Below, one piece after another: positions 1,427 through 15,232 of a stretch of 64,000 nucleotides of DNA; the stretch's first letter is position 1; each line of letters starts with the position of its first letter. The DNA lies in assembly GCA_017428765.1 (NCBI GenBank), contig JAFRQF010000018.1:55840-119839 (forward strand), given 5' to 3'. Below the pieces are notes generated by a model that ran no database searches, was not told where the DNA came from, and worked only from the letters and a program-made list of their open reading frames with translations. The stretch is from Erysipelotrichaceae bacterium (GTDB taxonomy: Bacteria > Bacillota_I > Bacilli_A > Erysipelotrichales > Erysipelotrichaceae). The position numbers and the translations under genes were made by a program.

Positions 1427-2848
1427 ATGAATAAAAACAAGACGGCATCAAATAAGAATATGAAAAGGATCATCCTTGTGGCATTGATCGGCGCAGCATT
1501 GCTGCTAAGTTTTCTTATGCCCTATGCCGTCTTTGACAGAGACAAAGTCATCCTGGAAAAGGGTCAGCAGTATAAGGCGATGGACCTGATCAAGAGGTCC
1601 AATGGCGAAGTCATCCCGGAGGCGGAATATATCGATACGAGTGAAGTCGGCTTTTTTGATTTCACCTATACGCTGAAGCAGTTCTTCTATACAAGAGAGA
1701 CTGTCTTACATTATGAAGTCGTCGATACGACCCCGCCGGACCTTAAGATCATTGCCGATCCGATCCATCTGAAAGCCGATCAATCCTATACGATGGAAGA
1801 CGTATTGAACAACGTTACTTATGACGAAGGAACGATCGAATTTGAAACGGATCTTGATGCCGATTTCCCGGGCACCTATTCGATCAAAGTCACCGCAAAG
1901 GATGATTACGGAAACAAGTCGGAAAAGACATACGGTCTGGTCGTCGATGATACGGAAGCTCCTTTCCTCTTTGTATCCGGTGAATTCATCCGGATCAGGA
2001 AAGGATCGACTTTCAACATCTACGACTACATCGCCTATGGCGACAACGCCGACCGTGACCCGATCTTGGAGATCGACGGCAAAGTCGATACCGACCGCAT
2101 CGGCGAATATCCTCTGAAAGCGTCATTGACCGATAAGGCGGGCAATGTAACGGAATGGGACATCACGGTCAAAGTCGTTAACAAGTTCCCGCAAAACGAT
2201 GACGAGGAGGAAGGCGAAGAGCCGATCGAGTTCAAAGACTTCGTCAAAGAATACAAAAAAGAAGGAAGACGCTTCGGCATAGATGTTTCCGAATGGCAGG
2301 GACAGATCGATTATGAAACTCTGAAGAAGGCAGGATGTGAATTCGTCATGATGCGCATCGGCTTTTCAAGAAACGGCGTCCTGTATCTCGATGACAGTTT
2401 CAAAGAAAACCTGGCCGGGGCAAAGAGCGTCGGCATGCCGATAGGCGTCTACTACTATTCCAACGACAAAAGCGAAGAGGAAGTAAAAAGCGTCCTGCGG
2501 CAGATCATCGCCGAGCTTGGCGATACCCACCTGGAACTTCCGATCGTGTTCGACTGGGAGAATTTCACTTACTTCAATGATTACGGGATCAGCTTCAAAG
2601 ACCTCGATCATCTCTACAACATCTTTGAAGAAGAAGCAAGAAAACAGGGCTACGATACGATGTTGTATGGCAGCAAGTATTACCTGGAAAACATCTGGCG
2701 CCGCACGGACGAAAGAAAGATCTGGCTCGCCCACTACACCGATTGGTCGAGCTACGAAGGAGACTATGTGATGTGGCAGACCTGCGCCTGGGGAAGGGTC
2801 GACGGAGTAGATGCGGATGTCGATCTCGATATCTGGTTCACGGAATAA
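1427..2848 (+). CDS. Membrane-anchored GH25 muramidase (lysozyme) with Ig-like (DUF5011-type) domains
   Basis: N-terminal TM helix. Two 'DTTPP/DDTEAP'-initiated Ig-like modules. C-terminal GH25 pattern FGIDVSEWQG...MMRIG...DVDLDIW. Confidence 0.85.
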   Translation: MNKNKTASNKNMKRIILVALIGAALLLSFLMPYAVFDRDKVILEKGQQYKAMDLIKRSNGEVIPEAEYIDTSEVGFFDFTYTLKQFFYTRETVLHYEVVDTTPPDLKIIADPIHLKADQSYTMEDVLNNVTYDEGTIEFETDLDADFPGTYSIKVTAKDDYGNKSEKTYGLVVDDTEAPFLFVSGEFIRIRKGSTFNIYDYIAYGDNADRDPILEIDGKVDTDRIGEYPLKASLTDKAGNVTEWDITVKVVNKFPQNDDEEEGEEPIEFKDFVKEYKKEGRRFGIDVSEWQGQIDYETLKKAGCEFVMMRIGFSRNGVLYLDDSFKENLAGAKSVGMPIGVYYYSNDKSEEEVKSVLRQIIAELGDTHLELPIVFDWENFTYFNDYGISFKDLDHLYNIFEEEARKQGYDTMLYGSKYYLENIWRRTDERKIWLAHYTDWSSYEGDYVMWQTCAWGRVDGVDADVDLDIWFTE

Positions 2849-2887: not shown

Positions 2888-3039
2888 GTCCTCAGAGCCT
2901 ATAAACGAAACGATAATAAGGAAGTCACACTTAATCAGGAACAATAAATAATTTACGAAGACTTGTTAATTTTTCCTATAAACTATTAAACCATATGAAT
3001 TCATCATCACTATTTAAAATCGATTTGAATTAGTTCTGT

Positions 3040-3354
3040 TTATTTCGTGTCATCAAATAATAAATCCATGTTGTTGTATATACTTACGCCAAAGAGCTTT
3101 TGCAGTTTTTTGTTCAGGTGTAGAATTTCATCTGGTGTTAGATGCTCATTTAGATCTATCAGGAGCTTTTCATATATCTCATAAATTGTATCGTAACTGC
3201 TGAGCAGATCAAGAAGTAATTCAACGCTTTCTCTTGTGCGAGGCAGCATTTCGAGTCTTTTTTGAAACTCATGCCAAGAATTCGGGTCTAGTTCTGCCCT
3301 GTCTTCGTATTCAGAAAGCATCTCACCAAACGATTTTTTATCGTTTTTGTTCAT
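3040..3354 (-). CDS. Hypothetical small acidic, predicted all-helical protein (last gene of the island operon)
   Basis: 104-aa ORF in AT-rich DNA, co-directional with and 37 nt downstream of the preceding gene. No motif recognised. Confidence 0.6.
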   Translation of the reverse strand: MNKNDKKSFGEMLSEYEDRAELDPNSWHEFQKRLEMLPRTRESVELLLDLLSSYDTIYEIYEKLLIDLNEHLTPDEILHLNKKLQKLFGVSIYNNMDLLFDDTK

Positions 3355-3391
3355 CTATTTTTTGGCTTTTTGTTACTGTCTTGTTGGTTGA

Positions 3392-3874
3392 TCAATCAAA
3401 TATGCTGATTATGATTTCACCAGCAGCGGTGGTGATTGTGTAAGCTGCGGGGGCACACGCGAGGAGAACGCCTATAAACCAGAACACTGCAATGAAGGGT
3501 ATCAATTTGCTTAAGAACCCTACCGCAAAGAAAAGGATAACGCTGATTATGGTGCAGAGCGATACCCACAGAATGTTTTTGAAAACACATTCCAATATGT
3601 TGCGGTATTCATCGACCATGGCTATACATATAATGACTGAAGATAAGAAGTCAATGAATAACATGACCGGCACTCCGAAAAGAACAAAGATGTTGTAGGC
3701 AAAGTCCACAATATCATCGTACTGAGCAGATTTTCCATAGGGGAACCAGTAAGCCATTCCATCTGGATCGATTTTGTAAAGCACCAAGAACAGTATTATG
3801 GGAATTGCCGCCATAACAAAGCTGATAAAATACATTAACGTTTTGTTGTCTGATAGTTTTTGATTCTTTTTCAT
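3392..3874 (-). CDS. Hypothetical polytopic membrane protein (about 4 TM)
   Basis: 160 aa with four long hydrophobic segments. Member of the island operon. Confidence 0.7.
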   Translation of the reverse strand: MKKNQKLSDNKTLMYFISFVMAAIPIILFLVLYKIDPDGMAYWFPYGKSAQYDDIVDFAYNIFVLFGVPVMLFIDFLSSVIICIAMVDEYRNILECVFKNILWVSLCTIISVILFFAVGFLSKLIPFIAVFWFIGVLLACAPAAYTITTAAGEIIISIFD

Positions 3875-3947
3875 TTGAGTTATTCCTTTCTTTTGTTAAT
3901 ACTGATAAGTTTTTGTGTACAGTTAAGACTTTGTAATCTGTTCTTCT

Positions 3948-4910
3948 TTAATGGATCCCAGATATCGTTTCGATTTCAAAATCTTCAGGATCAAGATATT
4001 CATTGTCTTCTGTCAGCTCAAAATCGATCAGATTATTAGAAATCAAGATCTTGAAGAATTCTTTGAGTTTACGCCTTTCTGTTTCGTTTCTATGAAAAAT
4101 CAATTCTCCCCTTTCGTATTCGATGCAATTCTCTACGATATCGAGTATGGGAATCTTTATATTCATGCTGCTTGCTGCACTGATCCTGTATAACCGAGAT
4201 TCATCGAAATCCAAACTTTCCTCAACAAAATTACAGACAGCATTTTTGATGTCGTTGTTTTTCCTCGTATCTTCTCTTAAGATTTCAATCTTTTCTTTTG
4301 TCGTCTTATCGTTAATGGGCAATTTGGTAGCCTCGTCAAAGTATATTCTGAGAAACTTTCTAGTCCTATCTCCCTCGTTTTGAAACGGCGTTCCGTCGCT
4401 ATAACCTTTCATTGATTCGTTGATGAAGTAACTGTAATACTTGTATAGCTGATCGTTGATGAATCTGATTGCGCTGTCAACTATCTGTTCGGTCAGATAC
4501 TCCTTGATAGCGAAGGAAAAGCAGAATTCAACTCTTCCGATATTGAAACGGCCATGATCGACATCTCTCTGCGTGATTCTGTTTTTTCCGGCACAGCAAA
4601 TCGGCTCAAAAATGAAACCTGATGTTTTATCCCTTTCTTCTTTCGCGATCGCTTTCGCAAGACGAGATACAGCTTTTACATTACCGGGATATATGGTACA
4701 TATCCTTGTTTCTGAAAAAAGTACAAGCTGCTTTTTTACAAGCTTGAAGTAAAACCTTACATCAAAATAGTCAGGGCCAATCCTTGCATTCAAAGTTTTG
4801 CTTTTGCTTTTTGAATCACATAACGGCTGGATGCAAATATCTTTGATATCATTTCTATTTAAAAGACAGATATGAAGAACGTTCAACGATTCTAATAATT
4901 TAGCATTCAT
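3948..4910 (-). CDS. Hypothetical cytoplasmic protein, no recognisable motif
   Basis: 320-aa ORF in AT-rich DNA, where long ORFs are unlikely by chance. Its start lies 3 nt downstream of the upstream gene's end (4914). Confidence 0.75.
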   Translation of the reverse strand: MNAKLLESLNVLHICLLNRNDIKDICIQPLCDSKSKSKTLNARIGPDYFDVRFYFKLVKKQLVLFSETRICTIYPGNVKAVSRLAKAIAKEERDKTSGFIFEPICCAGKNRITQRDVDHGRFNIGRVEFCFSFAIKEYLTEQIVDSAIRFINDQLYKYYSYFINESMKGYSDGTPFQNEGDRTRKFLRIYFDEATKLPINDKTTKEKIEILREDTRKNNDIKNAVCNFVEESLDFDESRLYRISAASSMNIKIPILDIVENCIEYERGELIFHRNETERRKLKEFFKILISNNLIDFELTEDNEYLDPEDFEIETISGIH

Positions 4911-4913
4911 AAT

Positions 4914-5750
4914 TTAATTACCTTTCTTTAGATTTACACAGATCATCTTGGCCTTCTTTTCGAGAACCAAGAAAACAAGGAACAGCGCAAAAGGAACTTT
5001 GTAAAAACAGAACAAGAGTCTGGAAACAACATCTACAAAGAACTTATCATAGAGCGTTGTTACGACCGTCAAAAGAATCGAGAGCAGTTCTCCGGATAAA
5101 AGAGAGATATAGTAATTCAAGTTATCGATATCAATGAACCGGGCAAGAACAAGAGCTGTAAGAATGATGGTTTCTGCAAAGCACGAAACATCATGAAAGT
5201 AGAAAACACGGTCAGGCAGACTACAAATGTAGATGCCTAAAAGGAAAGATAATGAGCCGTAGAAAGAGAAATGCTTTCCATTTTTATACGCAATTCCGGC
5301 AACGCAAAGAGGCAGTGCTTTGAATAATGCAAACATGTTGGAAGATTGGAACAAATAATATTGGAACTCGATATTGTACTTAAGGCAGTGATAAAGATCT
5401 GAGATAAAATGTGACCCTAAAATAGCAACGCCGGCTAGCAATAGTGCGATGGAACCAGCTAAATGGTAGATTTTTGCCATGCGCTCACTGACCACAAGAG
5501 TTGTAAAATTCTTTTGGTTCATTTCCAGAATTCTGTCTGAAATCAAGGTGTCATGAAGACGTAAAGCTCTTTTGTGGCAAACGCCCAGCCCCCTCATCAA
5601 AGGCACTACAGAATACTTTCCGTGATCCCTGATGATGTATCTTGCATCTTCATAAAACGGATCAACATCCATTTCCGTATCGTCCCGGAACAGGTTCTTA
5701 ATCGAATGTATAATCTTTATGAGTGATCTATAGATACTTTTAATAGTCAT
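4914..5750 (-). CDS. Membrane protein with an N-terminal FtsK-gamma-like winged-helix domain and about 5-6 TM helices
   Basis: aa ~29-77 DPFYEDARYIIRDHGKYSVVPLMRGLGVCHKRALRLHDTLISDRILE aligns by eye with the FtsK gamma pattern D.LY..A...V...GK.S.S.LQR.L.IGY.RA.RL.D.LE..GI. The remainder is hydrophobic. Confidence 0.65.
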   Translation of the reverse strand: MTIKSIYRSLIKIIHSIKNLFRDDTEMDVDPFYEDARYIIRDHGKYSVVPLMRGLGVCHKRALRLHDTLISDRILEMNQKNFTTLVVSERMAKIYHLAGSIALLLAGVAILGSHFISDLYHCLKYNIEFQYYLFQSSNMFALFKALPLCVAGIAYKNGKHFSFYGSLSFLLGIYICSLPDRVFYFHDVSCFAETIILTALVLARFIDIDNLNYYISLLSGELLSILLTVVTTLYDKFFVDVVSRLLFCFYKVPFALFLVFLVLEKKAKMICVNLKKGN

Positions 5751-5785
5751 TTTTTCTCCTTTTATTAATCTTTATAGATTTTGTG

Positions 5786-7081
5786 CTATTGCCTAGGAAC
5801 GCTAACCAAAAACTTTGGTTCAAGCAGCTCCAATCTGACTTCAGAAAGATCGATGGCTGCGCGTTGTCCTTCTTCATTTTCCGAGATAATATAAGCTTTT
5901 TTAATTCTTTGTTTGGCAAAGTTTTTTATTTCGGTGTAACTTTTGCCTTCGTAGTCGATAGAAATTGAGATTCTTTTCTCCTCCCTATCACATTTCACAT
6001 CTGCTGAATCAACATTCGTTTCAAAGGTCTCGCCTTTATTTGTGTAACAGCCAAAAGATTTGATCAAATATCTGTTCAGAAAAACATTTGGCAAGGCAGC
6101 ATGGCAGATGATCTTTGCATAGCACATAAACTCCATCTGGAATAAACTGTGTAAAAGAATTATTGGATCCATGAAATACCTAAGTCTGTAAACACCATAT
6201 GTGCATTCTTTTAGATAATCATCTGTATTCAAGATTTCTTCCTTAAGCACTTTGAGCTGGGTATCTTTTTCCCAGTGTTTCAAAGGATCCGAGTGCTGCA
6301 TCGCTTTGTACCAAAGATATTTTTCAAACCCAGCACTATTTTCGTAGCTGCGTTTGATTCTCTTTTGAACATTCGAATAGTAAAGCTGATCATTTTCAAA
6401 TCTGTTTATTCTTACCGGAAGATTTGCAAGAAGTAACAGCACACTTGGGCAATTGTATTTACCTTCATTCTTACTGGAGATCAAGTTGGATACACAGCAC
6501 GAGTACAGATAATTTTCATTTTTCCTAGAGACAAACGAACCGCCACGAACCGCAAAAACGTATCCTATAAAATCCGCACAGACCATTTGTAAACGTCTTA
6601 TATGCAGATTTGTGATGAGCTGTCGGATCAGTGTGTTTGTAAATCCTTCATCAACGTCGTAATCCATTACTTCTAAAAGAAAAGCGTTATAGAGATGAAG
6701 AGAAAATCGGATGACATTTGGATCATTCGAACGGACGAGATCCAGGATAAAATCCTGAATCTCAGAAATCCGTTTTTGAAGAAAACCATTTCTCTTGTCT
6801 TTGTTTTTTGAAAAAATCAAAAAGATGACAAACCTAGCGATTTCATGAATTTCTTCAGAATATTTTTCGGATAATGAGATGCCACGAAAAACCAGAGACG
6901 AGATCGCTTGCCTTTCTAAATCTTCTTTTCCGTGTGTCTCTTTCCCTTTCTTTTTCAAAGAGCATTGAACATCAATTAATAAATCTCTTGAAAGGCCGTG
7001 CTCATAAGTGATTCTTTTTAAATAAGCTTGATAATTCATAACCGTTCTATCAACGAGCTTATAGCGATGGCTTTTATTCAT
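5786..7081 (-). CDS. Hypothetical cytoplasmic protein, no recognisable motif
   Basis: 431-aa ORF in AT-rich DNA. Overlaps the upstream gene by 8 nt (7074-7081). Confidence 0.75.
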   Translation of the reverse strand: MNKSHRYKLVDRTVMNYQAYLKRITYEHGLSRDLLIDVQCSLKKKGKETHGKEDLERQAISSLVFRGISLSEKYSEEIHEIARFVIFLIFSKNKDKRNGFLQKRISEIQDFILDLVRSNDPNVIRFSLHLYNAFLLEVMDYDVDEGFTNTLIRQLITNLHIRRLQMVCADFIGYVFAVRGGSFVSRKNENYLYSCCVSNLISSKNEGKYNCPSVLLLLANLPVRINRFENDQLYYSNVQKRIKRSYENSAGFEKYLWYKAMQHSDPLKHWEKDTQLKVLKEEILNTDDYLKECTYGVYRLRYFMDPIILLHSLFQMEFMCYAKIICHAALPNVFLNRYLIKSFGCYTNKGETFETNVDSADVKCDREEKRISISIDYEGKSYTEIKNFAKQRIKKAYIISENEEGQRAAIDLSEVRLELLEPKFLVSVPRQ

Positions 7082-8183
7082 CTTTTTCCTCCTCGTATCT
7101 CAGATACATGTCAACAAACTCTGACGAACAGAAGTGTTTACATGTATCATGACGTTGCTTTTCGGTTTGATATCTTTCATCGAACGAGCAGTAATTTTCT
7201 TCATAAAAGGCGCAATAGCAGCAATCCGCTGGGAGAATCATTGTGTTTTTGTTTTCTCCTGCGCACAACGCTTTACGCAGCCGCTGTTCCTGCGGTGTTT
7301 GATTCAGACATTCCCTGATTGTCATATCTTCATAAAACCTTGCGCCACATACTAATCTGATAGCCCTGTCTTTACTGATCTTATAGACCTTTTCTAGTAG
7401 GCCGGCAGGATTTTGATTAACTCTTTTTGCAAACCACCATGCTTTATCGAATAAAGGATCACAGACTATAGTGGATTCCAGATCAGATATGCTGATTTCG
7501 TAATCATCATCAGATGGTTCTTTAGGATCCCACATAATACTCTTCAGTAATAAACATAGATGAAACATGTTCCCGGCTTCTTCGACATTGTTCATATCGA
7601 ATCCTGAGAGGTCGATTGCTCTAAGCTTTTTGCACCCTTCAAACAAAGAGGTCATGATCTTAACGTTAAAAGCGTTGCGTGGCAGGATTAAGTCAGAAAG
7701 ATGTATGCAGCCTGCGAATAGAAAGCTAATATCTTCCTGTTCGCTTATATCTAATCCGGACAAGTTGATCATTTTGTATGACTTTTTTCTCGAATCCCTT
7801 AAATGCAAGCCGGCAGCAGTATCTTCATAAGTAAGGAGCTTTAGGATATCGCGAGGTGGCTTGATTTTCTGAAACGGTGTATCTGCGGTTACATACACAT
7901 CAATTAAAGAATCTGAAGCGAACGAGATATAACATTTGATTTCTCCGGAAAGAAAATCGCCTATGTCTTCGATCATCAGATCATATGACTCGCTATAAGG
8001 CTGATCTGCTATTGTCAGATTTATGAAATAGTCATCTATGCAAATAGCTTGATCTTCTCTTTGAAGCTCTCTTTGAATCGCTGCTTCAAGATAGTATTGA
8101 AAAGAAAGAGAGATCCTGAAGTTTACCTTTCTTTTTTCATTGAGATCATCTAAATACTCATTCATATCTTTCAATTCCTTCAT
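7074..8183 (-). CDS. Cytoplasmic DUF285/BspA-type leucine-rich-repeat protein with a Cys-rich C-terminal tail
   Basis: Three repeats of the DUF285 type (e.g. DLSGFDMNNVEEAGNMFHLCLLLKSI). No signal peptide. Seven Cys between aa 307 and 352 (C-x13-CC-x-C-x7-C-x15-C-x3-C). The start may be the Met at 8165 (ATGAATGA overlap with the upstream stop). Confidence 0.7.
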   Translation of the reverse strand: MKELKDMNEYLDDLNEKRKVNFRISLSFQYYLEAAIQRELQREDQAICIDDYFINLTIADQPYSESYDLMIEDIGDFLSGEIKCYISFASDSLIDVYVTADTPFQKIKPPRDILKLLTYEDTAAGLHLRDSRKKSYKMINLSGLDISEQEDISFLFAGCIHLSDLILPRNAFNVKIMTSLFEGCKKLRAIDLSGFDMNNVEEAGNMFHLCLLLKSIMWDPKEPSDDDYEISISDLESTIVCDPLFDKAWWFAKRVNQNPAGLLEKVYKISKDRAIRLVCGARFYEDMTIRECLNQTPQEQRLRKALCAGENKNTMILPADCCYCAFYEENYCSFDERYQTEKQRHDTCKHFCSSEFVDMYLRYEEEKDE

Positions 8184-9510
8184 GAATTGTGATGTTGTTC
8201 CGCATAAACTCGGTTGATTCCAAACTGATCTCCTTTGAGTTTGAAAAGGATCTGCTGTTTTCTGGCAAAGGCTCTGTCGGATTCAGATAAACCCACCGAC
8301 TTTCATTTCCGTCCCTAAAAGTGTAGTGATCCGTGCTTACGTTTTGGATACACCAATCTGTAATTGCAGATTCCCAGGGATCCTCGATCAGATTTCCGTT
8401 ACTGTTACCATGCAAAATGATCATGTTTTCTTCGTCGATCACATCTATAACAAAAGCAACTGTGCCATACGGATGATTGCTGGTGGGCAAGGCTGATGCA
8501 ATAGAGCCGGCAGCCGGTGTGCTGGATTTGTGCCATCCAGGCATGTCACTGTTATTGACCCAATTTCCACCATTACCATGAGTATTAACAGAGACTCCCA
8601 GCTGCGTAAGAATTCCATAACAAAACCAAGTACACTGGCCGAAGTCATATGGATTAAACGGGTGTTCCCAGGCTTTTCTAACAGAAAAATCAGGAAGAAA
8701 CGAACGCATAGGATCTGTTATCAAATAGCTTCCACTGATTTGAGACAGAAGATAAGATGATTTTTCATAACTTTTAGAAAGGGACCCTGCATCACAATTG
8801 TTTTTATTAAAGATAGATCCCTCAATATTTACCTTTTGATACTCGCCATAAGATACCAGAGATTTTCCTGTCGTTGCGTAAGGGCGAATGTAGTAAATCC
8901 CCTGTTTCAATTCACCAAAACGATCGGCTGTTTCAAAGGCAACATAATTCAAATCACTGAGATTCTTGATACTTCTATAGACGCTTCCCAAGAAACCGTT
9001 TTCTTCATCAAACAGTAAATACCCACATCCGTCAGCCTCGTTAATGCCTTGATCGATATCATAGGAAATAAATGCCCCTCCCTCATATCCTTCGCTTTTC
9101 AAATTGTTAATTGAAGCATAAGTAGACAGAGGGCTGACGACTACTTTTGGCCCTTCTGTCAATTCGTTTTCTATTTCGATAAAAGGAATCAAAACATATT
9201 GTTTGTTTTCATCAAACGCCATTGTCGAATCAGACATGCGTATTTGTTCCTTATAAAGCTCAGAAATACTGTGTGTTTTATAAACCTTATATTGTCCCCC
9301 GGAACAGTTAATTAAGAGCCCTGATTTCAATGTTCCCGAATAAGAATCCACGGAAACATCAAAACTGATGGCGAAATCCTTGTTGGCTTTATCAATTTCG
9401 ATTACTACGTTTGAAATTTCGGATCTCTTAACGGATTCCGCAAATACACTTTCTATTTGTAAAGAAGACAGACAGATTACAGCAATCAGAAGCATAAGAA
9501 TTCTTTTCAT
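8158..9510 (-). CDS. Secreted protein with beta-rich repeat modules and a C-terminal CHAP-like domain
   Basis: Signal peptide MKRILMLLIAVICLSSLQIESVFA|E. The CHAP pattern FGQCTWF...GNGGNW...PAAGSIA...YGTVAFV is present. The canonical GHV histidine position reads GTV. Confidence 0.8.
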   Translation of the reverse strand: MKRILMLLIAVICLSSLQIESVFAESVKRSEISNVVIEIDKANKDFAISFDVSVDSYSGTLKSGLLINCSGGQYKVYKTHSISELYKEQIRMSDSTMAFDENKQYVLIPFIEIENELTEGPKVVVSPLSTYASINNLKSEGYEGGAFISYDIDQGINEADGCGYLLFDEENGFLGSVYRSIKNLSDLNYVAFETADRFGELKQGIYYIRPYATTGKSLVSYGEYQKVNIEGSIFNKNNCDAGSLSKSYEKSSYLLSQISGSYLITDPMRSFLPDFSVRKAWEHPFNPYDFGQCTWFCYGILTQLGVSVNTHGNGGNWVNNSDMPGWHKSSTPAAGSIASALPTSNHPYGTVAFVIDVIDEENMIILHGNSNGNLIEDPWESAITDWCIQNVSTDHYTFRDGNESRWVYLNPTEPLPENSRSFSNSKEISLESTEFMRNNITIHEGIERYE

Positions 9511-9592
9511 AACAGACCTTCTTTCTCGTTCGCGTAGAAGAACTTATCGGCGTTTCCGCCTCCAGACTGATCTGAAGGCGGAACATAAGCGC

Positions 9593-10933
9593 TCAGTTTT
9601 GGTGCCATGATGAAATGAAATTATAGGTTTGTGTGTATCCGTTTCCATCGTCGTGTTGAAACTGAAATGTGTTTGAGTCGTAGTCGATTTTCCATCGGTA
9701 ACTAGTGACAAACACCCTTCCTCCGCCATCGGACGTTGTGGCTTCTAATACATCGAGTTTTCCATCCGACTTAATGTCACGAATGAACAGCCAGTGATCG
9801 CTTCCACCTGTTTTATGAAGCTTTACTACGTCATACTTTCTTATGTTTGAAATATTTGTATTTGTCCTTCCGTTTCGATAACTCTGGTTGAATACGACCC
9901 GAGAAAGATCAAGAGTATAGGCACAGCAGCCCCAGGCGTTAAAAATGGGATTAGTATAAGATTTTCTGCCTCCCCATTTAGCACCATCTTCCCATTTAGG
10001 GTTTCTAAGGAATGCGTTAATTCTTCCTTCTGTTGTTGAAATTTTTATCTCGATAGGAATTCTGTTGCTGTAACGGACCTGACCACCGCTCACAACATAG
10101 GCTTGCGCATAATAGTCCCCAGGCCACAAAACAGCTTTTTCATAATACTTGGCTGTATCGTAGGAAGCACTGAAGTTTCCCGAATAATTGAGCCCTGAGT
10201 CGTTTCCGCCGCCGATTTTTGAGCCGTTGCTGTCAAAAAGCTCAAAACCGCATTCGTTAGCTTTGTACGATGTTCCTTGACTTACTTTGAAAGAGAAAGT
10301 GAAACGGGAATCATCGATTGATACTGAAACAGAATAAGGGATAGCGTATTCGCTTGGCGTTGAAACAGTATATTTCTGACCGTAAAACATCTGCCCGCTT
10401 TGTGTTTTGACATAGTTTTGAACGGTATAGCTGGTCCCTTCCGTTACTGTCAATCCGTACTTTGACATAAGGTAGGATGAACCCAGCACGTGACTGTTTG
10501 CCAATTCACTGCCTTTTAAATCGTCATAGAAGTTATAAGATGTAGTAGGTCCTATCACGATGGTTCCAACACGTTCCAACAAAACTCTCCCTGGATTATC
10601 AACTCTGAAATTAACCTTAAAATCAGTTGAAGAAAGGTCTGTCGTATCTTTGTTTGTAACAACAGGTACTTTAGATTCCATCTTGTTGGGCGAATTAATT
10701 TGAACAAACAAGTTGGAAGATGAATTGCCATTCAGCGTCAGTTTTGCATCCACCATGGTTTTCTTCTGATTATTGTTGAGAAGATAACCGGTAGAAGGAG
10801 TGTGATCTCCACCTTCTTCGGCGTTTACGACTTCGCTGTTGCAGGTGATCATGCCAAAAAGCATTAAAACCACCAAAAACAATGAGACGACCCTTTCTAA
10901 CGAAAAGGTACTTTTATTGCTTATCATTTCCAT
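9593..10933 (-). CDS. Secreted protein with beta-rich repeat modules and a C-terminal papain-fold (NlpC/P60- or CHAP-like) domain
   Basis: AGGAGG RBS. Signal peptide ending VVNA|EE. C-terminus WGCCAYT ... YDVVKL ... SDHWLFI ... VLEATT fits a Cys-His-acid papain-like arrangement. Modules are paralogous to those in 8158..9510. Confidence 0.7.
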   Translation of the reverse strand: MEMISNKSTFSLERVVSLFLVVLMLFGMITCNSEVVNAEEGGDHTPSTGYLLNNNQKKTMVDAKLTLNGNSSSNLFVQINSPNKMESKVPVVTNKDTTDLSSTDFKVNFRVDNPGRVLLERVGTIVIGPTTSYNFYDDLKGSELANSHVLGSSYLMSKYGLTVTEGTSYTVQNYVKTQSGQMFYGQKYTVSTPSEYAIPYSVSVSIDDSRFTFSFKVSQGTSYKANECGFELFDSNGSKIGGGNDSGLNYSGNFSASYDTAKYYEKAVLWPGDYYAQAYVVSGGQVRYSNRIPIEIKISTTEGRINAFLRNPKWEDGAKWGGRKSYTNPIFNAWGCCAYTLDLSRVVFNQSYRNGRTNTNISNIRKYDVVKLHKTGGSDHWLFIRDIKSDGKLDVLEATTSDGGGRVFVTSYRWKIDYDSNTFQFQHDDGNGYTQTYNFISSWHQN

Positions 10934-10962
10934 TTTTTCCTCCTTACCCTTCGGGCATTTTC

Positions 10963-11000
10963 ATAATAGAAGTTCAATGTTGTGGAAAAAGTTGTGGAAA
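10963..11000 (-). promoter_or_regulatory. Candidate activator-dependent promoter of the island operon: -10 TATTAT plus tandem direct repeat GTTGTGGAAA x2
   Basis: On the minus strand TATTAT lies at 10968..10963. GTTGTGGAAA occurs at 10979-10988 and 10991-11000 (12-nt period), covering about -23 to -44. No TTGACA-like -35 is present there. Confidence 0.45.
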
Positions 11001-11037
11001 TTGATAACTTTTAATGCTTTTGTTTTTTTACAGGCTT

Positions 11038-11067
11038 TTGATTCTTTGCTTTGTATTCTGGTAATAA
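11038..11067 (+). promoter_or_regulatory. Candidate sigma-A-type promoter for the STAND gene
   Basis: TTGATT, 18-nt spacer, TAATAA, with TG just upstream of the -10. Confidence 0.3.
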
Positions 11068-11141
11068 TGAAAGATATTGGAATTCAAAGAACAGAGATGA
11101 AAAGGCACAGGAGAAAACAAATTTTCATTTAAAATGAAATT

Positions 11142-14100
11142 ATGGATAAAATAACCGTTTGTTTTAACAAAGGTAAGGATAATGAAGTGACTGTCGATTT
11201 TGAAAAAAACAGAGTTTTTGGCAAGAACAACAGCCTGCTTGAGTTTGAAGTTGAAAAAACTAGAACGGTTAAAAATGAAGACGGAAAGATAGTTAAAGAA
11301 AAGACTGGCGAAAAGAGCAAAGATGCAGTACGTTCCCTTCAAGATAAACCATACGCCTTTTTGCTTGCGGCGGTTAAACACTACAGTTTAGGCACAGTAA
11401 CGATTGATCAAATACGTGAAGAGTATAAGATGCAAACCGGTAACGAAATGGGCGACCACATCATCAAATGTAAAGACTTGAGAGATATCAAATCAAAGAT
11501 CGGAAAGATTATTAAATATCCCGAGTTTTTAACAGCGCATGACACGTATTATGAATGGAACAAGAATTCACAAGATTTTTCCATATCTATTGAAAATAAT
11601 GGTTCGTTTTCGTTGTTAAAGTCATTCGTTTCCGATCCCTCGGAATTAATGAATTATGTAGAACCCGATCAATTAAAAGAGATAGAAGATGATTTTTTAA
11701 CAAATAAATTTCCTGTCCACATCATTTCTGCAGAGCATGGTATGGGTAAGACTTTGTTAGCGAAAAAACTAATTTCGAATCTTTATAATTGGAATGTTTT
11801 CTATTCTGTTTATAAGGATAATCTTGAAGAAACGGTATGTTCGCTTGCCACTTCTTCTGAAGAAAACAAGAAACCAATTTTTTCAGATGTTATTGCGCTT
11901 TTAAATGACGAAACTGGTGATAAAAAATACAGAGATGTGATCTCTTTTCTAGAGCACGAATACTATGATAAAGAAAGCATCAGAGATGCAATTTTATCGC
12001 TGAAACGTGATGCCAATACTAAAAAACGAAATGTACTGCTTGTAATAGACAATTATGATTCGGATCGATTTGAAAATGAACTAACGCAGGAGAACAGATC
12101 GTATCAGGCTCTTCTTGATACCGGAATTAATATACTTATCACCACGACCGCCAATATGGAAGGAGCATGGAAATCAAAGCAGATGATTTTGAAACCGCTG
12201 AACGAAGATAAACGATACGAATTGTTTGTCAGCTCTTTACCGAAAAGAAAAAAGAAAGATTACGAAGAAAAAGAAACTATCCTCTCTTTTATTGACAAAT
12301 ATCTGAAAAACAACACCTATCTGATTGCTTTAGCTGCCAGGTTGTCAGAGTACTATAGCATTGACGAGATTTCTTCATCAATTGCAGATTATGACAGCAA
12401 AAAACGCAGTCCGGTTTTATCGGATCCTATCGCTGGAAAAAATGAAGCGGACAAAGATTCGTTGTTTGGTCATTTTTACTCGCTTTTCAGACTTTCTCTT
12501 GAAAAAATGCCAGATAAAGAAACGGCCCATAAGATTCTTTATAACTTGGCTGCAATGCCGGTAGAAGGTCTCGCAAAAGATTTATTTGTAGATCTTTCCT
12601 TTTCTATAGAGGAACAAAATAATGGCTACCTGATAATGTTGGAACGACTATGCAGAAATTATTGGGTGACAGAGGAAAAAAGAGGGAAAGAAGACAGACT
12701 GATGCTTCACCCGATGGTCAGACTGATTGTTACTAAAAAGATCGATTACCAGGAAGGCTATCTTACTTTTCTCTTAAAAAAACTAAGTAATTCTACAGTA
12801 AATATTTCAGCATATAACGATCGTTTTCCGGAATTTTTAGACTTTACCTTATCTTTGAACATGCTACTAAAAGAGAGGAGAATTTGCGATAAAAATGACC
12901 TCGTTTTATTAAGTGCCGGAATCATTTCGCTTTGTGATATAATCAGCGACTCCAATAAAGTTGAGGAGTTAGCCGATACGACATATGAAGGTCTAAACAA
13001 TATCAATTTAGCAAAAGAAGAAGACAAGGTATTGTATGCAAACGCGATGAATGTTGTGGGCTACGCCCTCTTGCATACTGAGAACATAGAGGAAAATCTT
13101 GAAAAGGCAACAAGGTTACTTGATAAAGCGGAAAAGCTGCTTGATGGAAATGAAGATGAGGAAAGTAAAACGGTTTTATCAAAAATAAAAGGAAATAAAG
13201 CTGCTTATTATATGAAAATACAAGACTGGCAAACGATGTACGAAACACACGAAGCCAATTACTTTTTCAGACAGACATTAAAAGGTAGCAATAAAGATGA
13301 ATTGTGCGGTGCAAGTCTTCGAGGAATGGCGACAGCCATGTATTATCAGGCTAAAGAAGCCGAAGAAAACGGCCATATAGGGACTGCTGCAGAAAAGTTT
13401 TTAAACTCTTACAAAACTCATAAAGCGGCGTATAAATACTTTCATTCTGCCCAATTGGAATTGGAACAGGCTATTACAGTGATCCGCAGATCCGGAACTT
13501 TTCTTAATTGGTTAAAATGCTTGGATGAAAAGAAAAAACATCAAAGCAATGTTCAGGATGTCTTTATAAAAGAACTCGGCGATTTGGAGGGCGTCTTGGA
13601 TTATCTGAGCGTACGTATGAAAAAACGAGATGAAAAGGAAACCGCTAATTGTAAAGACACAATAAGTTCCTTTATCGATACAGGCATTCGTCTTAATTAT
13701 CCTCTTCCAAAATATATAAAAGAAAAAGCCGGATGGACAGCAAACCCTTTTACTTGTCCGGATTCATCGCTAAGCACAGAAGAGCGTCGCAGGCTGATTT
13801 TAGACAGATTTAACAACTGGCTCTCAAAAGAAGAATTGGCAGATCTGTTTAAAGAGTCTTCTTTTAAATATGATGCAAAAAGCGAATTCGATAAAAAAAT
13901 ATCATTCTTTAAACACGAGTCTTTCAACTCTTTATGGGATTACAGAAAAGAAAAAGAAACAGGAGAGATAAAGGAACGAGGACAGATCAGAAAAGAAAAA
14001 GACAAAGAGATTCCTTTGGAAATAAAGACAAAAGCTTTTATAGCTGCCCAAGCGTTGAATCTTATAGGAGTCCAGGACTCTCAATTTGAAAACGTAGACT

Positions 14101-14708
14101 ATATACTTCCATTAGGTGGTGGAGGCATATCGAACCTTAAGCGATGTGAGCTTGCAAATAGAGAATTTGTTCGATTAAAAAGAAAACCTGAAGTTGTGGC
14201 TTTATCAACGTCGCGCCTAATAGACTTTGATAGAGCCGACACAGATACATTTGCACCAAATGCGCAAACCGAGTTTGATGCAATATCAGAAGGCATGAAG
14301 AAAGCCTTTGGTGCCAGAAAACATGAAGAAGAGTTGTCGGAACATGACGCCAAGATTATCAGACTGGAGACAGACAATAAAGAAGATCGGCTGTTTGTTA
14401 CATCGTGCCCTTCGTCTGATCCCAATAGAAGAGCTGATACAAACGATAATTATCGTTATTTCTTTTCTCAATTCAAAGTAAATAAAGGGGCAAAAATAAT
14501 CTGTTGCACTGGACAGGTATATTGCACGTATCAGCAAGCAGTGGCTCTTAAATATGCGTGCAAGTACAACGTAGAGATTGATACGATCGGTTTTTCTTCT
14601 TCAAAGAAAGCTCTGGCGATCGATTATCTTATGGAGATAAAGAAAACGATATTAGCGATCATTGATTTTGTTGATGAGATCAACGTCTACGCAAAGAATC
14701 TACCCTGA
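11142..14708 (+). CDS. STAND (NB-ARC-like) P-loop NTPase with an N-terminal OmpR/SARP-like winged helix, TPR-like repeats and a C-terminal DUF218/YdcF-like domain
   Basis: Walker A AEHGMGKTLLAKK (aa ~197-209), Walker B VLLVIDNYD (aa ~298-306), ILITTT, and KPLNEDKRYELF, as in NB-ARC. N-terminus has KPYAFLLAAVKHYSLGTVTIDQIREEY ... LRDIKSKIGKII...HDTYYEW, like trans_reg_C. C-terminus has YILPLGGGG...TEFDAISEGM...RADTNDNY...IICCTGQVYCTYQQA, like DUF218. Confidence 0.8.
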   Translation: MDKITVCFNKGKDNEVTVDFEKNRVFGKNNSLLEFEVEKTRTVKNEDGKIVKEKTGEKSKDAVRSLQDKPYAFLLAAVKHYSLGTVTIDQIREEYKMQTGNEMGDHIIKCKDLRDIKSKIGKIIKYPEFLTAHDTYYEWNKNSQDFSISIENNGSFSLLKSFVSDPSELMNYVEPDQLKEIEDDFLTNKFPVHIISAEHGMGKTLLAKKLISNLYNWNVFYSVYKDNLEETVCSLATSSEENKKPIFSDVIALLNDETGDKKYRDVISFLEHEYYDKESIRDAILSLKRDANTKKRNVLLVIDNYDSDRFENELTQENRSYQALLDTGINILITTTANMEGAWKSKQMILKPLNEDKRYELFVSSLPKRKKKDYEEKETILSFIDKYLKNNTYLIALAARLSEYYSIDEISSSIADYDSKKRSPVLSDPIAGKNEADKDSLFGHFYSLFRLSLEKMPDKETAHKILYNLAAMPVEGLAKDLFVDLSFSIEEQNNGYLIMLERLCRNYWVTEEKRGKEDRLMLHPMVRLIVTKKIDYQEGYLTFLLKKLSNSTVNISAYNDRFPEFLDFTLSLNMLLKERRICDKNDLVLLSAGIISLCDIISDSNKVEELADTTYEGLNNINLAKEEDKVLYANAMNVVGYALLHTENIEENLEKATRLLDKAEKLLDGNEDEESKTVLSKIKGNKAAYYMKIQDWQTMYETHEANYFFRQTLKGSNKDELCGASLRGMATAMYYQAKEAEENGHIGTAAEKFLNSYKTHKAAYKYFHSAQLELEQAITVIRRSGTFLNWLKCLDEKKKHQSNVQDVFIKELGDLEGVLDYLSVRMKKRDEKETANCKDTISSFIDTGIRLNYPLPKYIKEKAGWTANPFTCPDSSLSTEERRRLILDRFNNWLSKEELADLFKESSFKYDAKSEFDKKISFFKHESFNSLWDYRKEKETGEIKERGQIRKEKDKEIPLEIKTKAFIAAQALNLIGVQDSQFENVDYILPLGGGGISNLKRCELANREFVRLKRKPEVVALSTSRLIDFDRADTDTFAPNAQTEFDAISEGMKKAFGARKHEEELSEHDAKIIRLETDNKEDRLFVTSCPSSDPNRRADTNDNYRYFFSQFKVNKGAKIICCTGQVYCTYQQAVALKYACKYNVEIDTIGFSSSKKALAIDYLMEIKKTILAIIDFVDEINVYAKNLP

Positions 14709-14755
14709 AACGCAATTATTAAAGACGCCTTACGAAACGGCAAAAGAAAATAATA

Positions 14756-15070
14756 TTAGTCTTTGTGAGCGACCTCGGCGTACGCGTGATTGGAAGGATG
14801 ATATTGGATCATCACTTCTTCGTCTTTCTTCAATCCCTTCGCTCCGCGAAGCAGTGCTTTTCTTTCCGCATTGTTTTCATCGAGATAATTCACATAAAAG
14901 GTATACGATGTGTTTCCGGTATCGTCATCATAATTCTCATCGATGCGCGATATCCTCCCTTTTGTTGTGATGCCTTCTTTTGCGATCCTTGTATGATGTA
15001 TCAGGTTGTAAATGATGATAACTGCCGCAATAAGGATCAATAGTATCCAGAAAAGGATCCCTTTATTCAT
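14756..15070 (-). CDS. DUF3592-like small membrane-anchored protein
   Basis: N-terminal TM helix followed by the pattern G.ISRI...Y.FYVNY...G..V.IQYHP.N, typical of DUF3592. Composition is closer to the host flank. Confidence 0.6.
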   Translation of the reverse strand: MNKGILFWILLILIAAVIIIYNLIHHTRIAKEGITTKGRISRIDENYDDDTGNTSYTFYVNYLDENNAERKALLRGAKGLKKDEEVMIQYHPSNHAYAEVAHKD

Positions 15071-15232
15071 ATGCTGTACTTCACTCCTTTTTCACTAAGA
15101 CCAATTATAGATGTTTTTTTATGAAGAGTTCCGATCTTTCAGGAGTATGCATACAGGGATCATTTGAATAAAGGTCCGTTATGGGGCAAGAGACGATAGA
15201 AATCGCATCAGATATGATACATTGCATTTGAA

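Follow-up and report, generated by a model that had tools for sequence, protein, structure and literature searches.

A winged-helix STAND regulator joined to a PF27209 partner module in a gut Erysipelotrichaceae lineage

Switches of the STAND class (signal transduction ATPases with numerous domains), together with their NLR relatives (nucleotide-binding, leucine-rich repeat receptors), play a central part in immunity and regulation throughout the domains of life, and for most of them the main open question is what feeds signals to the sensor arm. This question is raised by one gene in a 64-kb stretch of an Erysipelotrichaceae metagenome-assembled genome (MAG; contig JAFRQF010000018.1), called here the window. 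The gene, a single uninterrupted open reading frame (ORF) at 11142..14708 on the plus strand, encodes a regulator of 1188 amino acids (aa) which is listed at NCBI as MBQ6216848.1, 'hypothetical protein'. An earlier note, made from the sequence alone, had read it as an OmpR/SARP-like winged helix-turn-helix (wHTH), an NB-ARC NTPase, tetratricopeptide repeats (TPR) and a terminal DUF218-like domain. Sequence comparison assigns residues 1-868 to one family, here family A, which combines an OmpR-type winged helix, an Apaf-1-like STAND NTPase and TPR, and residues ~868-1188 to a second one, family B, which is Pfam PF27209 (Rv3785_N). The locus points to a conserved PF27209 partner of STAND-TPR proteins, whatever their output may be, including transcription, TIR or SIR2 domains of the NADase type, and CHAT domains of the protease type.

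The identical 1188-aa product is found with the same neighbours on 18 contigs from independent metagenome assemblies. The regulator is therefore a real gene, and an assembly artefact, a chimera or a pseudogene fusion is ruled out. Standard libraries say little about it. The whole protein and four separate segments gave no match above threshold in Pfam, NCBIfam, PADLOC, PHROGs or PDB sequences, and the sole signal was a set of weak P-loop matches, namely AAA_22 (25.9 bits, cut-off 27), NACHT (16.9, cut-off 26.7), and, weaker than AAA_22 and likewise sub-threshold, NPHP3_N and nSTAND3. A word-indexed homologue search of 5.8 billion proteins returned just one fragment of the regulator itself.

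Fusion of two families and the partnership of PF27209 with STAND genes

An exhaustive phmmer search was run against a library of 1.84 billion representatives, with the 150 best matches returned, and it placed 285 relatives of the regulator in two non-overlapping sets. Family A consists of ~800-aa proteins matching query residues ~170-850, and family B of ~320-aa standalone proteins matching residues ~870-1180. Among the 150 best matches, the fusion of A and B occurs in the window lineage only, and among the 165 retrieved proteins the complete combination is found in the query's own fragment alone; a TIR protein (P0076) matches profile A weakly, in the TPR region only. Regulators with wHTH, STAND and TPR parts are already known, and it is the single-chain PF27209 fusion that was seen in this lineage only, consistent with the earlier note's remark that such an architecture had not been described. 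Beyond the reach of that note was the finding that the C-terminal module belongs to a separate and larger PF27209 family, usually encoded by its own gene beside the regulator, and this changes the interpretation of the module. The usual PF27209 member is a standalone protein; in the window gene product it forms the C-terminal part of a regulator.

The origin of the fusion is seen in the locus of the closest relatives (L007), where the closest family A gene (P0002, 38% identity) overlaps by 20 nt with the closest family B gene downstream of it (P0164, 53% identity). In the window, W865 (TGG) stands in the place of the partner gene's ancestral ATG and the frame runs on, with …KAGWTANPFTCPD in the window aligned to the partner start MINNPIKCPD. 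The window gene is therefore the fusion of a conserved, translationally coupled gene pair. The two genes are adjacent and often overlapping in relatives: the wHTH type of family A lies full-length upstream of family B in L007, L013, L015, L026 and L027, and C-terminal family A fragments ending at contig ends lie beside family B in L005/6, L012 and L016. A natural fusion of this kind is genetic evidence that regulator and PF27209 protein act as one unit, and it offers a handy single-chain construct for structural work.

The partnership extends beyond the wHTH type. Both families were mapped in all fetched loci, a sample biased to relatives of the query and drawn mostly from gut and rumen Clostridia and Erysipelotrichia, and 20 informative family B loci lie outside the window lineage. 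In 16 of the 20, a STAND gene is fused to family B or directly upstream on the same strand, with a gap of -46 to +50 nt in the nine loci measured. Besides the pairs above, family B follows TIR-NACHT/NPHP3_N-TPR proteins (L024, L018), a TPR-rich protein which matches the family A profile and has lost its N-terminus at a contig end (L019), a SIR2 domain protein with a Walker A motif (L020), a NACHT/TPR protein (L039) and a P-loop-first protein (L014). Fused proteins of ~1,250 aa occur in Solobacterium, one resolved by Pfam as TIR-NACHT-…-B in L021 and a similar one in L022. One further locus of the 20 (L023) has a nearby divergent STAND of the type CHAT-AAA_16/nSTAND3-TPR, and in the remaining three (L011, L017, L038) family B has no adjacent STAND, with an Fe-ADH, an AbiH and a kinase-like fragment as neighbours. 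Additional fusions were found at the protein level: TIR-NACHT/NB-ARC-TPR-B (P0085, P0137), TIR with TPR and B (P0076), P-loop NTPase-B (P0115), B followed by a weak NPHP3_N match (P0084), and B-alpha/beta-hydrolase (P0128).

In L018, the match of the TIR protein to the family A profile (E 1e-20) covers the complete nucleotide-binding oligomerization domain (NOD) and TPR core, which is the core carried by the window regulator. Of the neighbour proteins, PADLOC recognised no more than the SIR2, TIR and AbiH effector parts, leaving STAND cores and family B unmatched; the defence models hit were LmuA/ThsA (1e-20) for the SIR2 neighbour and AbiH (6.6e-15) for the AbiH one. Since it also accompanies TIR-, SIR2- and CHAT-STAND proteins, the PF27209 module is a general STAND partner: it is the constant element, while the N-terminal outputs vary (wHTH, TIR, SIR2, CHAT). 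The module is always C-terminal, at the sensor end, or encoded just downstream, and for this reason an input or regulatory role is favoured over an output role. A constant PF27209 partner of STAND-TPR proteins with exchangeable outputs was found neither in the available literature nor in PADLOC, and the passages of a STAND survey paper matched by term searches describe no such partner. No paper mentions PF27209, and for Rv3785 no function has been published, the gene appearing only in lists of single-nucleotide polymorphisms and resistance associations. An apparent 'DUF218' mention in a Thoeris preprint is actually DUF2188.

Several neighbours of PF27209 genes were noted in passing. In L017, a standalone PF27209 gene is directly preceded by the abortive-infection gene AbiH (3216-4331; Pfam 1.6e-41), and no STAND gene intervenes. 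In L039 (3298-6354), same-strand genes for a 621-aa unknown protein and a Ser/Thr protein kinase come after a distant pair of STAND and PF27209, and then a transposase-like gene. A YjeF_N gene (L027, 34-663) adjoins one pair of families A and B, and a YjeF_C-like gene (L038, 1-342) adjoins a standalone family B gene. These NAD(P)HX repair neighbours could be a coincidence or the hint of a nicotinamide-nucleotide link.

Domains of the fused protein

The motifs quoted in the earlier note were all found at or near the places it gave for them, and its four domain calls are partly supported, each holding as remote homology or as structure. For the N-terminal winged helix, the AlphaFold2 (AF2) model of the regulator part (predicted local distance difference test, pLDDT, 81.7; predicted template-modelling score, pTM, 0.70) predicts a beta-sheet (aa 4-61), three helices (68-79, 88-99, 110-123) and a hairpin (130-139), and this order of helices and hairpin is that of OmpR-type winged helices (pLDDT 53-86). 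The motifs KPYAFLLAAVKHY (aa 69-81) and HDTYYEW (aa 133-139) lie in this part. Trans_reg_C (PF00486) has no match on the query at E<=10, but it matches 14 of 35 family A members, the set over which conservation in this family was counted (best 6.8e-13). The family A profile matches, at its N-terminus, OmpR/PhoB DNA-binding domains in the PDB (1kgs, 3.2e-9), and query aa 37-151 match the N-terminal profile of the relatives built without the query (hmmsearch, E 1.4e-7, single-sequence search). A likeness to SARP/AfsR regulators, by contrast, did not stand. Some 50 residues separate the hairpin (aa 139) from the P-loop strand (aa 192), leaving no room for a BTAD domain, and none appears among the 25 families listed, of 35 families matched, for the 35 relatives. 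Membership in SARP/AfsR is rejected because this domain is lacking.

Behind the winged helix, the model predicts a P-loop alpha/beta domain, a helical domain, a second winged-helix domain (hairpin 509-522) and an unbroken alpha-solenoid. The best Foldseek matches of the regulator model are Apaf-1 (1z6t, E 1.8e-8, 550 aligned columns) and CED-4 (~1e-7), followed by LGN-type TPR domains (~1e-5) and Avs5 SIR2-STAND filaments (3e-5). As modelled, the tripartite module of nucleotide-binding, helical and winged-helix domains is Apaf-1/CED-4-like. Residues G200, G202 and K203 of Walker A and D303 of Walker B are invariant in family A (35/35); within the D-N-Y-D of Walker B, N304 occurs in 34 members and D306 in 28. 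The motifs ILITTT (aa 331-336) and KPLNEDKRYELF (aa 351-362) follow in the order expected for an NB-ARC/AP-ATPase. An LHP motif is conserved in family A (H523 in 28/35, P524 in 32/35) and probably represents the MHD-type histidine motif, an assignment made from the model and the motif order and not by superposition. NB-ARC itself has no Pfam match on the query, so the earlier NB-ARC call holds through the fold and not through Pfam. Pfam on the 35 family A members recognised NACHT in 29, AAA_16 and AAA_22 in 22 each, TPR_12 in nine, and TPR_10 and NB-ARC in six each.

Helical repeats had been placed at aa 640-900. The repeat region was confirmed, with its extent shifted to aa ~542-867 in the model, where pLDDT is mostly above 85. 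No TPR hidden Markov model (HMM) matches the query itself; the TPR call is carried by the likeness to LGN TPR domains (TM-score to target 0.5-0.63) and by the TPR_12 and TPR_10 matches in relatives.

The C-terminal unit is ~320 aa long, aa ~868-1188, and thus longer than the ~220 aa of the earlier note, whose DUF218-like part is retained. Its AF2 model, built with 45 sequences, has high confidence (pLDDT 91.9, pTM 0.91) and places a helical subdomain before a Rossmann-type alpha/beta domain. Every retrieved relative of this region has a precomputed PF27209 match, and the query, itself unscored against the PF27209 model, matches PF27209-carrying proteins with E down to 1.6e-51 and up to 53% identity. 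The Pfam scan of the C-terminal family returned nothing because PF27209 is newer than the Pfam copy scanned. The motifs of the alpha/beta domain are YILPLGGGG (aa 987-995, nt 14100; LGGGG 991-995), R1001, TEFDAISEGM (1043-1052; TEFDA 1043-1047), CPSS (1089-1092), RRADTNDNY (1096-1104; RADTNDNY 1097-1104) and IICCTGQVYCTYQQA (1119-1133), which contains CCTGQVYCTYQQ (1121-1132). On the numbering of a 329-aa segment, all 45 family B members share G133, E185 and Q272, and at least 90% of them keep G134, R142, R238 and T264; here, as in family A, the conservation of the motifs goes beyond chance.

The relationship of this domain to DUF218 was provisionally rejected at one stage. Pfam DUF218 (PF02698) matches neither the query (E<=10) nor any of the 45 family B members. 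Foldseek against the PDB gave no significant match (best E 0.026), with no DUF218 or YdcF in the top 50; hhalign found nothing against a single YdcF sequence, an alignment of 13 columns only against ElyC, and, against a 123-sequence DUF218 profile dominated by Enterobacterales, a probability of 3.7%, barely above shuffles. This rejection was reversed by a BFVD match and a more diverse profile. In the viral structure library BFVD, the highest TM-score belongs to a DUF218 protein from Synechococcus phage S-SRM01 (target-normalised TM 0.55, root-mean-square deviation 5.2 Å, prob 1.00, E 0.015). The diverse DUF218 core profile holds ten sequences, namely Escherichia coli YdcF, SanA and ElyC and seven tblastn matches from other records. 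Against it, the C-terminal half of the domain aligns with Prob 79%, P 1.5e-5 and a score of 40.5 (60 column shuffles, maximum 18.9; reversed profile, 13.8), pairing ANS.DTF.FF…ILLvTS.IY..YQ with S.NT.EN…IVT..H..RA. The N-terminal half, in a separate test, aligns with Prob 79%, P 1.6e-5 and a score of 31.8 (shuffle maximum 13.4), pairing DYILxLGGAR…R…VVALS with DYIVVLG…R…IIVSGG. A permissive alignment is collinear across the whole 133-column core and pairs TEFDA with SEA..M, which bears out the motif pairing of the earlier note.

By these alignments the C-terminal alpha/beta domain is a remote relative of DUF218, and not a Pfam DUF218 member. The two share a Rossmann-like core with a collinear DYI-x-LGG, a helix-1 Arg, a second strand ending in S/G, (S/T)E-A/F, N-(T/S)-x-(E/D)-N/T, and a hydrophobic strand with T-S; the query retains the pocket-type residues common to DUF218 (GG loop, helix-1 Arg, Glu of TEFDA, N/S-x-D-T, T-S). 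The module differs in an added helical lid of ~105 aa, a beta-meander insert of ~35 residues, and Y..YQ in place of H..RA.

Candidate operator and the divergent operon

The regulator gene and a leftward operon diverge from an intergenic region of 208 nt. This region holds an exact tandem repeat of GTTGTGGAAA, and no equal repeat was reached in 500 dinucleotide shuffles; the two copies are the only exact ones in the window. Along the minus strand the elements run TTTCCACAAC-tt-TTTCCACAAC, 10 nt, TATTAT, 18 nt, AGGAGG, 5 nt and the ATG, which puts the repeats at about -23 to -44. There is no -35 hexamer, and the tandem repeat covers the -35 position. Repeats in place of a -35 box are the arrangement of PhoB/SARP-type class II activators, and direct-repeat operators overlapping this box are typical of SARPs. 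A simple sigma-70 scan does not list the promoter, which is putatively activator-dependent. The earlier suggestion that the regulator controls the adjacent wall-hydrolase operon is supported by the operator-like repeats at the operon's promoter. The coordinates of these elements, and of the domains above, are collected in Table 1.

Table 1. Features of the regulator locus, in window coordinates
Feature	Position (nt)	Strand	Basis or remark
Complete ORF; wHTH-STAND-TPR regulator fused to PF27209 partner module	11142..14708	+	1188 aa, ATG start
Predicted N-terminal DNA-binding region, aa 1-145	11142..11576	+	AF2 topology, family profile, Trans_reg_C in relatives
P-loop nucleotide-binding domain, aa ~190-350	11709..12191	+	conserved motifs, sub-threshold AAA_22/NACHT/NPHP3_N/nSTAND3, Apaf-1/CED-4 fold match
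Walker A GMGKT, aa 200-204	11739-11753	+
Walker B LLVIDNYD, aa 299-306	12036-12059	+
STAND helical domain (aa ~355-420, NTYL 391-394) and winged-helix domain (aa ~435-535)	12204..12746	+	AF2, Foldseek
MHD-like LHP motif, aa 522-524	12705-12713	+	conserved in family A
TPR-like alpha-solenoid, aa ~542-867	12765..13742	+	AF2 helices
PF27209 helical subdomain, aa ~868-972	13743..14057	+	conserved WDYR...R motif, WDYR at aa 932-935
DUF218-like Rossmann-type alpha/beta domain, aa ~975-1188	14064..14705	+	AF2, hhalign, BFVD match
Tandem direct repeat GTTGTGGAAA-aa-GTTGTGGAAA, 12-bp period; candidate wHTH operator	10979..11000	.	exact repeat, shuffle test
Putative activator-dependent promoter of divergent operon	10931..10968	-	-10-like TATTAT 10968-10963; AGGAGG 10944-10939; ATG 10933-10931
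Divergent operon, probable target	3392..10933	-	
Signal-peptide protein	9593-10933	-	
Secreted CHAP peptidoglycan hydrolase	8158-9510	-	
DUF285 protein	7074-8183	-	
Protein with no assigned function	5786-7081	-	
Membrane protein	4914-5750	-	four transmembrane segments, weak FtsK_gamma match
Second protein with no assigned function	3948-4910	-	
Protein with five transmembrane segments	3392-3874	-	

Similar repeats stand before other regulators of the wHTH family: three copies of ATTTCTACA with an 11-bp period in L026, two copies of AAAAGTGCACGAAA with an 11-bp period in L013, and two copies of TTGGTACACT with a 10-bp period in L015. In total, exact repeats of at least 10 nt with a spacing of 10-12 bp occur in four of seven wHTH-family loci, the window included (<=2/500 shuffles each), and in none of six control loci with TIR, SIR2 or P-loop STANDs. 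Imperfect repeats resembling the window unit are present in L025. A statistic that tolerates mismatches separates the loci less well than the exact-repeat test. The 117-nt intergenic region of L007 (3762-3878) has a GC-rich hairpin, CTCGAGAGGGGCGTTGCCCCTCTCG, beside the divergent gene instead of direct repeats.

Two proteins of the divergent operon, the CHAP hydrolase among them, have signal-peptide-like N-termini, and the operon also encodes multi-pass membrane proteins. In L007, the split regulator pair has homologues of six genes of the window island near it, including those of the CHAP, DUF285 and 9593 types. FtsK_gamma or FtsK_SpoIIIE domain proteins are found repeatedly in operons beside family A regulators (window 4914-5750, minus strand; L025, 818-2314; L026, 6733-9897), and these recurrent neighbours may reflect a mobile-element or secretion context.

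Proposed mechanism, rival readings and known systems

What, then, does the fused module do for the switch? In our view the regulator is probably an ATP-dependent STAND activator of the divergent operon, with the fused module supplying or gating the input signal. The OmpR/PhoB-type winged helix would bind DNA, the Apaf-1-like module would be the nucleotide-driven switch and oligomerisation engine, and the TPR solenoid would be a sensor or scaffold arm, bearing at its end the PF27209 module, a helical lid with a divergent DUF218-like Rossmann domain, which elsewhere is a separate, translationally coupled partner. At rest, the TPR arm and the partner module would keep the NOD closed in an ADP-type state. 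The signal would arrive at the C-terminal end, most likely as a ligand bound by the DUF218-like domain in its conserved Gly-rich pocket, or alternatively as a macromolecule recognised jointly by the TPR and the partner module. Release of this lock would allow ATP binding and oligomerisation, clustering winged helices on the tandem GTTGTGGAAA repeats, which would stand in for the -35 box and switch on the operon of the secreted CHAP hydrolase and the surface and membrane proteins. The analysis shows the architecture, how the fusion arose, the STAND-PF27209 partnership at many loci, and the repeats with their position; that the regulator binds these repeats, that it activates and does not repress, that the module has an input role, and what the signal is are inferred.

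Several observations weigh against this reading. Each of its steps is proposed from sequence and model, and no characterised homologue speaks for any of them. The winged helix of the query lies below Pfam detection, and its modelled confidence is only moderate. An Asn replaces the second acidic residue of Walker B in nearly all family A members (34/35), which suggests that ATP turnover may be slow or absent as a trait of the family. The intergenic regions of the closest relative (L007) and of L027 have no clear repeats, and the 12-bp period in the window departs from that of typical OmpR/PhoB/SARP sites (10-11 bp). The operons beside family A members vary, with Trypsin_2/FtsK_gamma in L025 and FtsK_SpoIIIE plus Prok-JAB in L026, so that the target class is not conserved. 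One family A member (P0003, L025) has no adjacent partner gene, and the partner genes of L011, L017 and L038 have no adjacent STAND. Finally, we know of no established biochemical activity for DUF218, and so the similarity points to no ligand.

The same core serves TIR, SIR2 and CHAT outputs, and therefore the switch may be an immune-type sensor rewired to transcription. In such a case the NOD-TPR-PF27209 core would be an NLR/Avs-like detector of a phage or mobile-element protein, the winged helix would replace a suicidal enzyme, and infection would induce the neighbouring operon, whose secreted or cell-bound peptidoglycan hydrolase and surface proteins would serve as the effector, lysing the cell early or remodelling its surface. 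This main rival departs from the activator reading just in what the signal is and what the operon is for, and we consider it unlikely. In its favour, TIR-STAND-TPR, SIR2-bearing and CHAT-STAND proteins have the partner module as a companion, and the module once lies beside AbiH; defence models match the SIR2 and AbiH neighbours; the family A core recurs in the TIR protein of L018; Avs5 filaments are among the Foldseek matches; and the gene lies in an island of low G+C content. Yet PADLOC has no match for the query, for P0004 and P0164, or for the partner family and the STAND cores, partner STANDs being matched through their TIR or SIR2 effector domains alone; no recognisable defence gene adjoins the window regulator, the island showed neither phage structural genes nor an integrase, and a transcriptional output would be slow for abortive infection.

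The earlier note had favoured a link to the cell wall, in which the DUF218-like domain would sense or act on an undecaprenyl- or nucleotide-linked wall precursor and couple envelope status to the hydrolase operon. SanA, ElyC and YdcF have an envelope role, so remote homology to their family speaks for this idea, as do the secreted CHAP hydrolase of the probable target operon and a GH25 muramidase flanking the island; these are the distant DUF218 relationship and the CHAP neighbour on which it is built. We regard it as improbable. The module is fused to a cytoplasmic regulator and has no signal peptide or membrane anchor, unlike the membrane-anchored DUF218 proteins of the SanA/ElyC type, whose N-terminal hydrophobic segments are seen in the alignment. 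The same module serves TIR, SIR2 and CHAT STANDs and operons unrelated to the wall, the linkage to CHAP is confined to the window lineage and L007, and DUF218 has no proven ligand, with nothing tying the module specifically to wall precursors. The least probable of the readings takes the PF27209 module as an enzyme, a second output which modifies or degrades a nucleotide-type metabolite once the STAND is activated. Invariant or near-invariant polar residues (R142, E171, E185, S232, R238, N240, D243, T264, Y268, Q272 and E306 in the 329-aa segment) and a Gly-rich loop after strand 1 give the module an active-site-like appearance, P0128 is fused to an alpha/beta-hydrolase, and there is a weak structural likeness to the nucleotide-processing Rossmann folds PpnN, YpsA-SLOG and USP. 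Against this stand the dedicated N-terminal effectors which the accompanying STANDs already have, the attachment of the module to the sensor end, its constancy where other parts of the system vary, and two changes at near-invariant positions in the query (N240 to D, Q305 to M).

Like the query, GutR of Bacillus subtilis and the AfsR/SARP-LAL-type regulators have an N-terminal winged helix, an AP-ATPase/NB-ARC-like NTPase and C-terminal TPR, and the unfused family A regulator of ~800 aa is of a size like that of GutR/AfsR-type activators. Ligand-induced ATP binding is reportedly the established model for GutR. The architecture of the query (wHTH-NTPase-TPR) appears closer to the GutR type than to SARP/AfsR, in which BTAD follows the wHTH, and AfsR is absent from the listed sequence and fold matches of the regulator. 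The host is a gut Erysipelotrichaceae, as against Bacillus for GutR and Actinobacteria for AfsR, and to our knowledge neither of the two has a PF27209 partner or fusion. MalT of E. coli is a STAND activator gated by the accessory proteins MalK, MalY and Aes and by a small ligand, and it is a precedent for a protein partner controlling a STAND regulator. Its DNA-binding domain is a C-terminal LuxR-type helix-turn-helix, whereas that of the query is an N-terminal winged helix, and its partners are unrelated enzymes encoded elsewhere, whereas the partner of family A is a dedicated, co-transcribed module. Avs and bacterial NLR-like STANDs share with the query a NOD plus TPR core and a swappable N-terminal output, which is a DNA-binding domain here and a NADase, nuclease or protease in Avs; the known Avs proteins are, as far as we know, single polypeptides with no dedicated DUF218-like partner.

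The locus has a moderately high chance of leading towards a new two-component STAND system. A wider picture, tentative and on the doubtful side, is that PF27209 proteins would be the dedicated second component of an entire clade of NLR-like STANDs in bacteria. At the far end of the TPR arm they would work as a co-sensor, a receptor for small molecules or a guarded decoy, with TIR, SIR2, CHAT and winged helix as freely interchangeable N-terminal outputs. The window protein would then be a fused single-chain receptor converting the same danger signal into transcription of a peptidoglycan hydrolase instead of NAD depletion. If this is true, it would define a new family of two-gene STAND systems, give PF27209/Rv3785-like proteins their first functional context and establish a cytoplasmic signalling role for DUF218-type domains. 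The locus itself puts two 'unknown' families into a functional context for the first time: PF27209, named after Mycobacterium tuberculosis Rv3785, and, by remote homology, DUF218. The regulator, its candidate operator and the divergent operon are a directly testable triplet in uncultured gut Erysipelotrichaceae.

The regulator lies inside a stretch of ~12 kb (window 3000-15100) with 35-40% G+C, compared with 48-50% in the remaining window. No flanking direct repeats, integrase or adjacent tRNA were seen at this island, and a search of related contigs (L035-L037) for an empty site found a different synteny and no clean empty site. The island contains the regulator, the divergent operon and a small convergent gene. 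On the left flank, outside the low-GC stretch, lies the GH25 muramidase (1427-2848, plus strand), with Ig-like domains and a signal-anchor-like N-terminus, as a second wall hydrolase close to the regulator locus. The small gene (14756-15070, minus strand), convergent with the regulator, encodes 104 aa with an N-terminal transmembrane segment and has no family match; it is kept with the regulator in all four window-lineage contigs.

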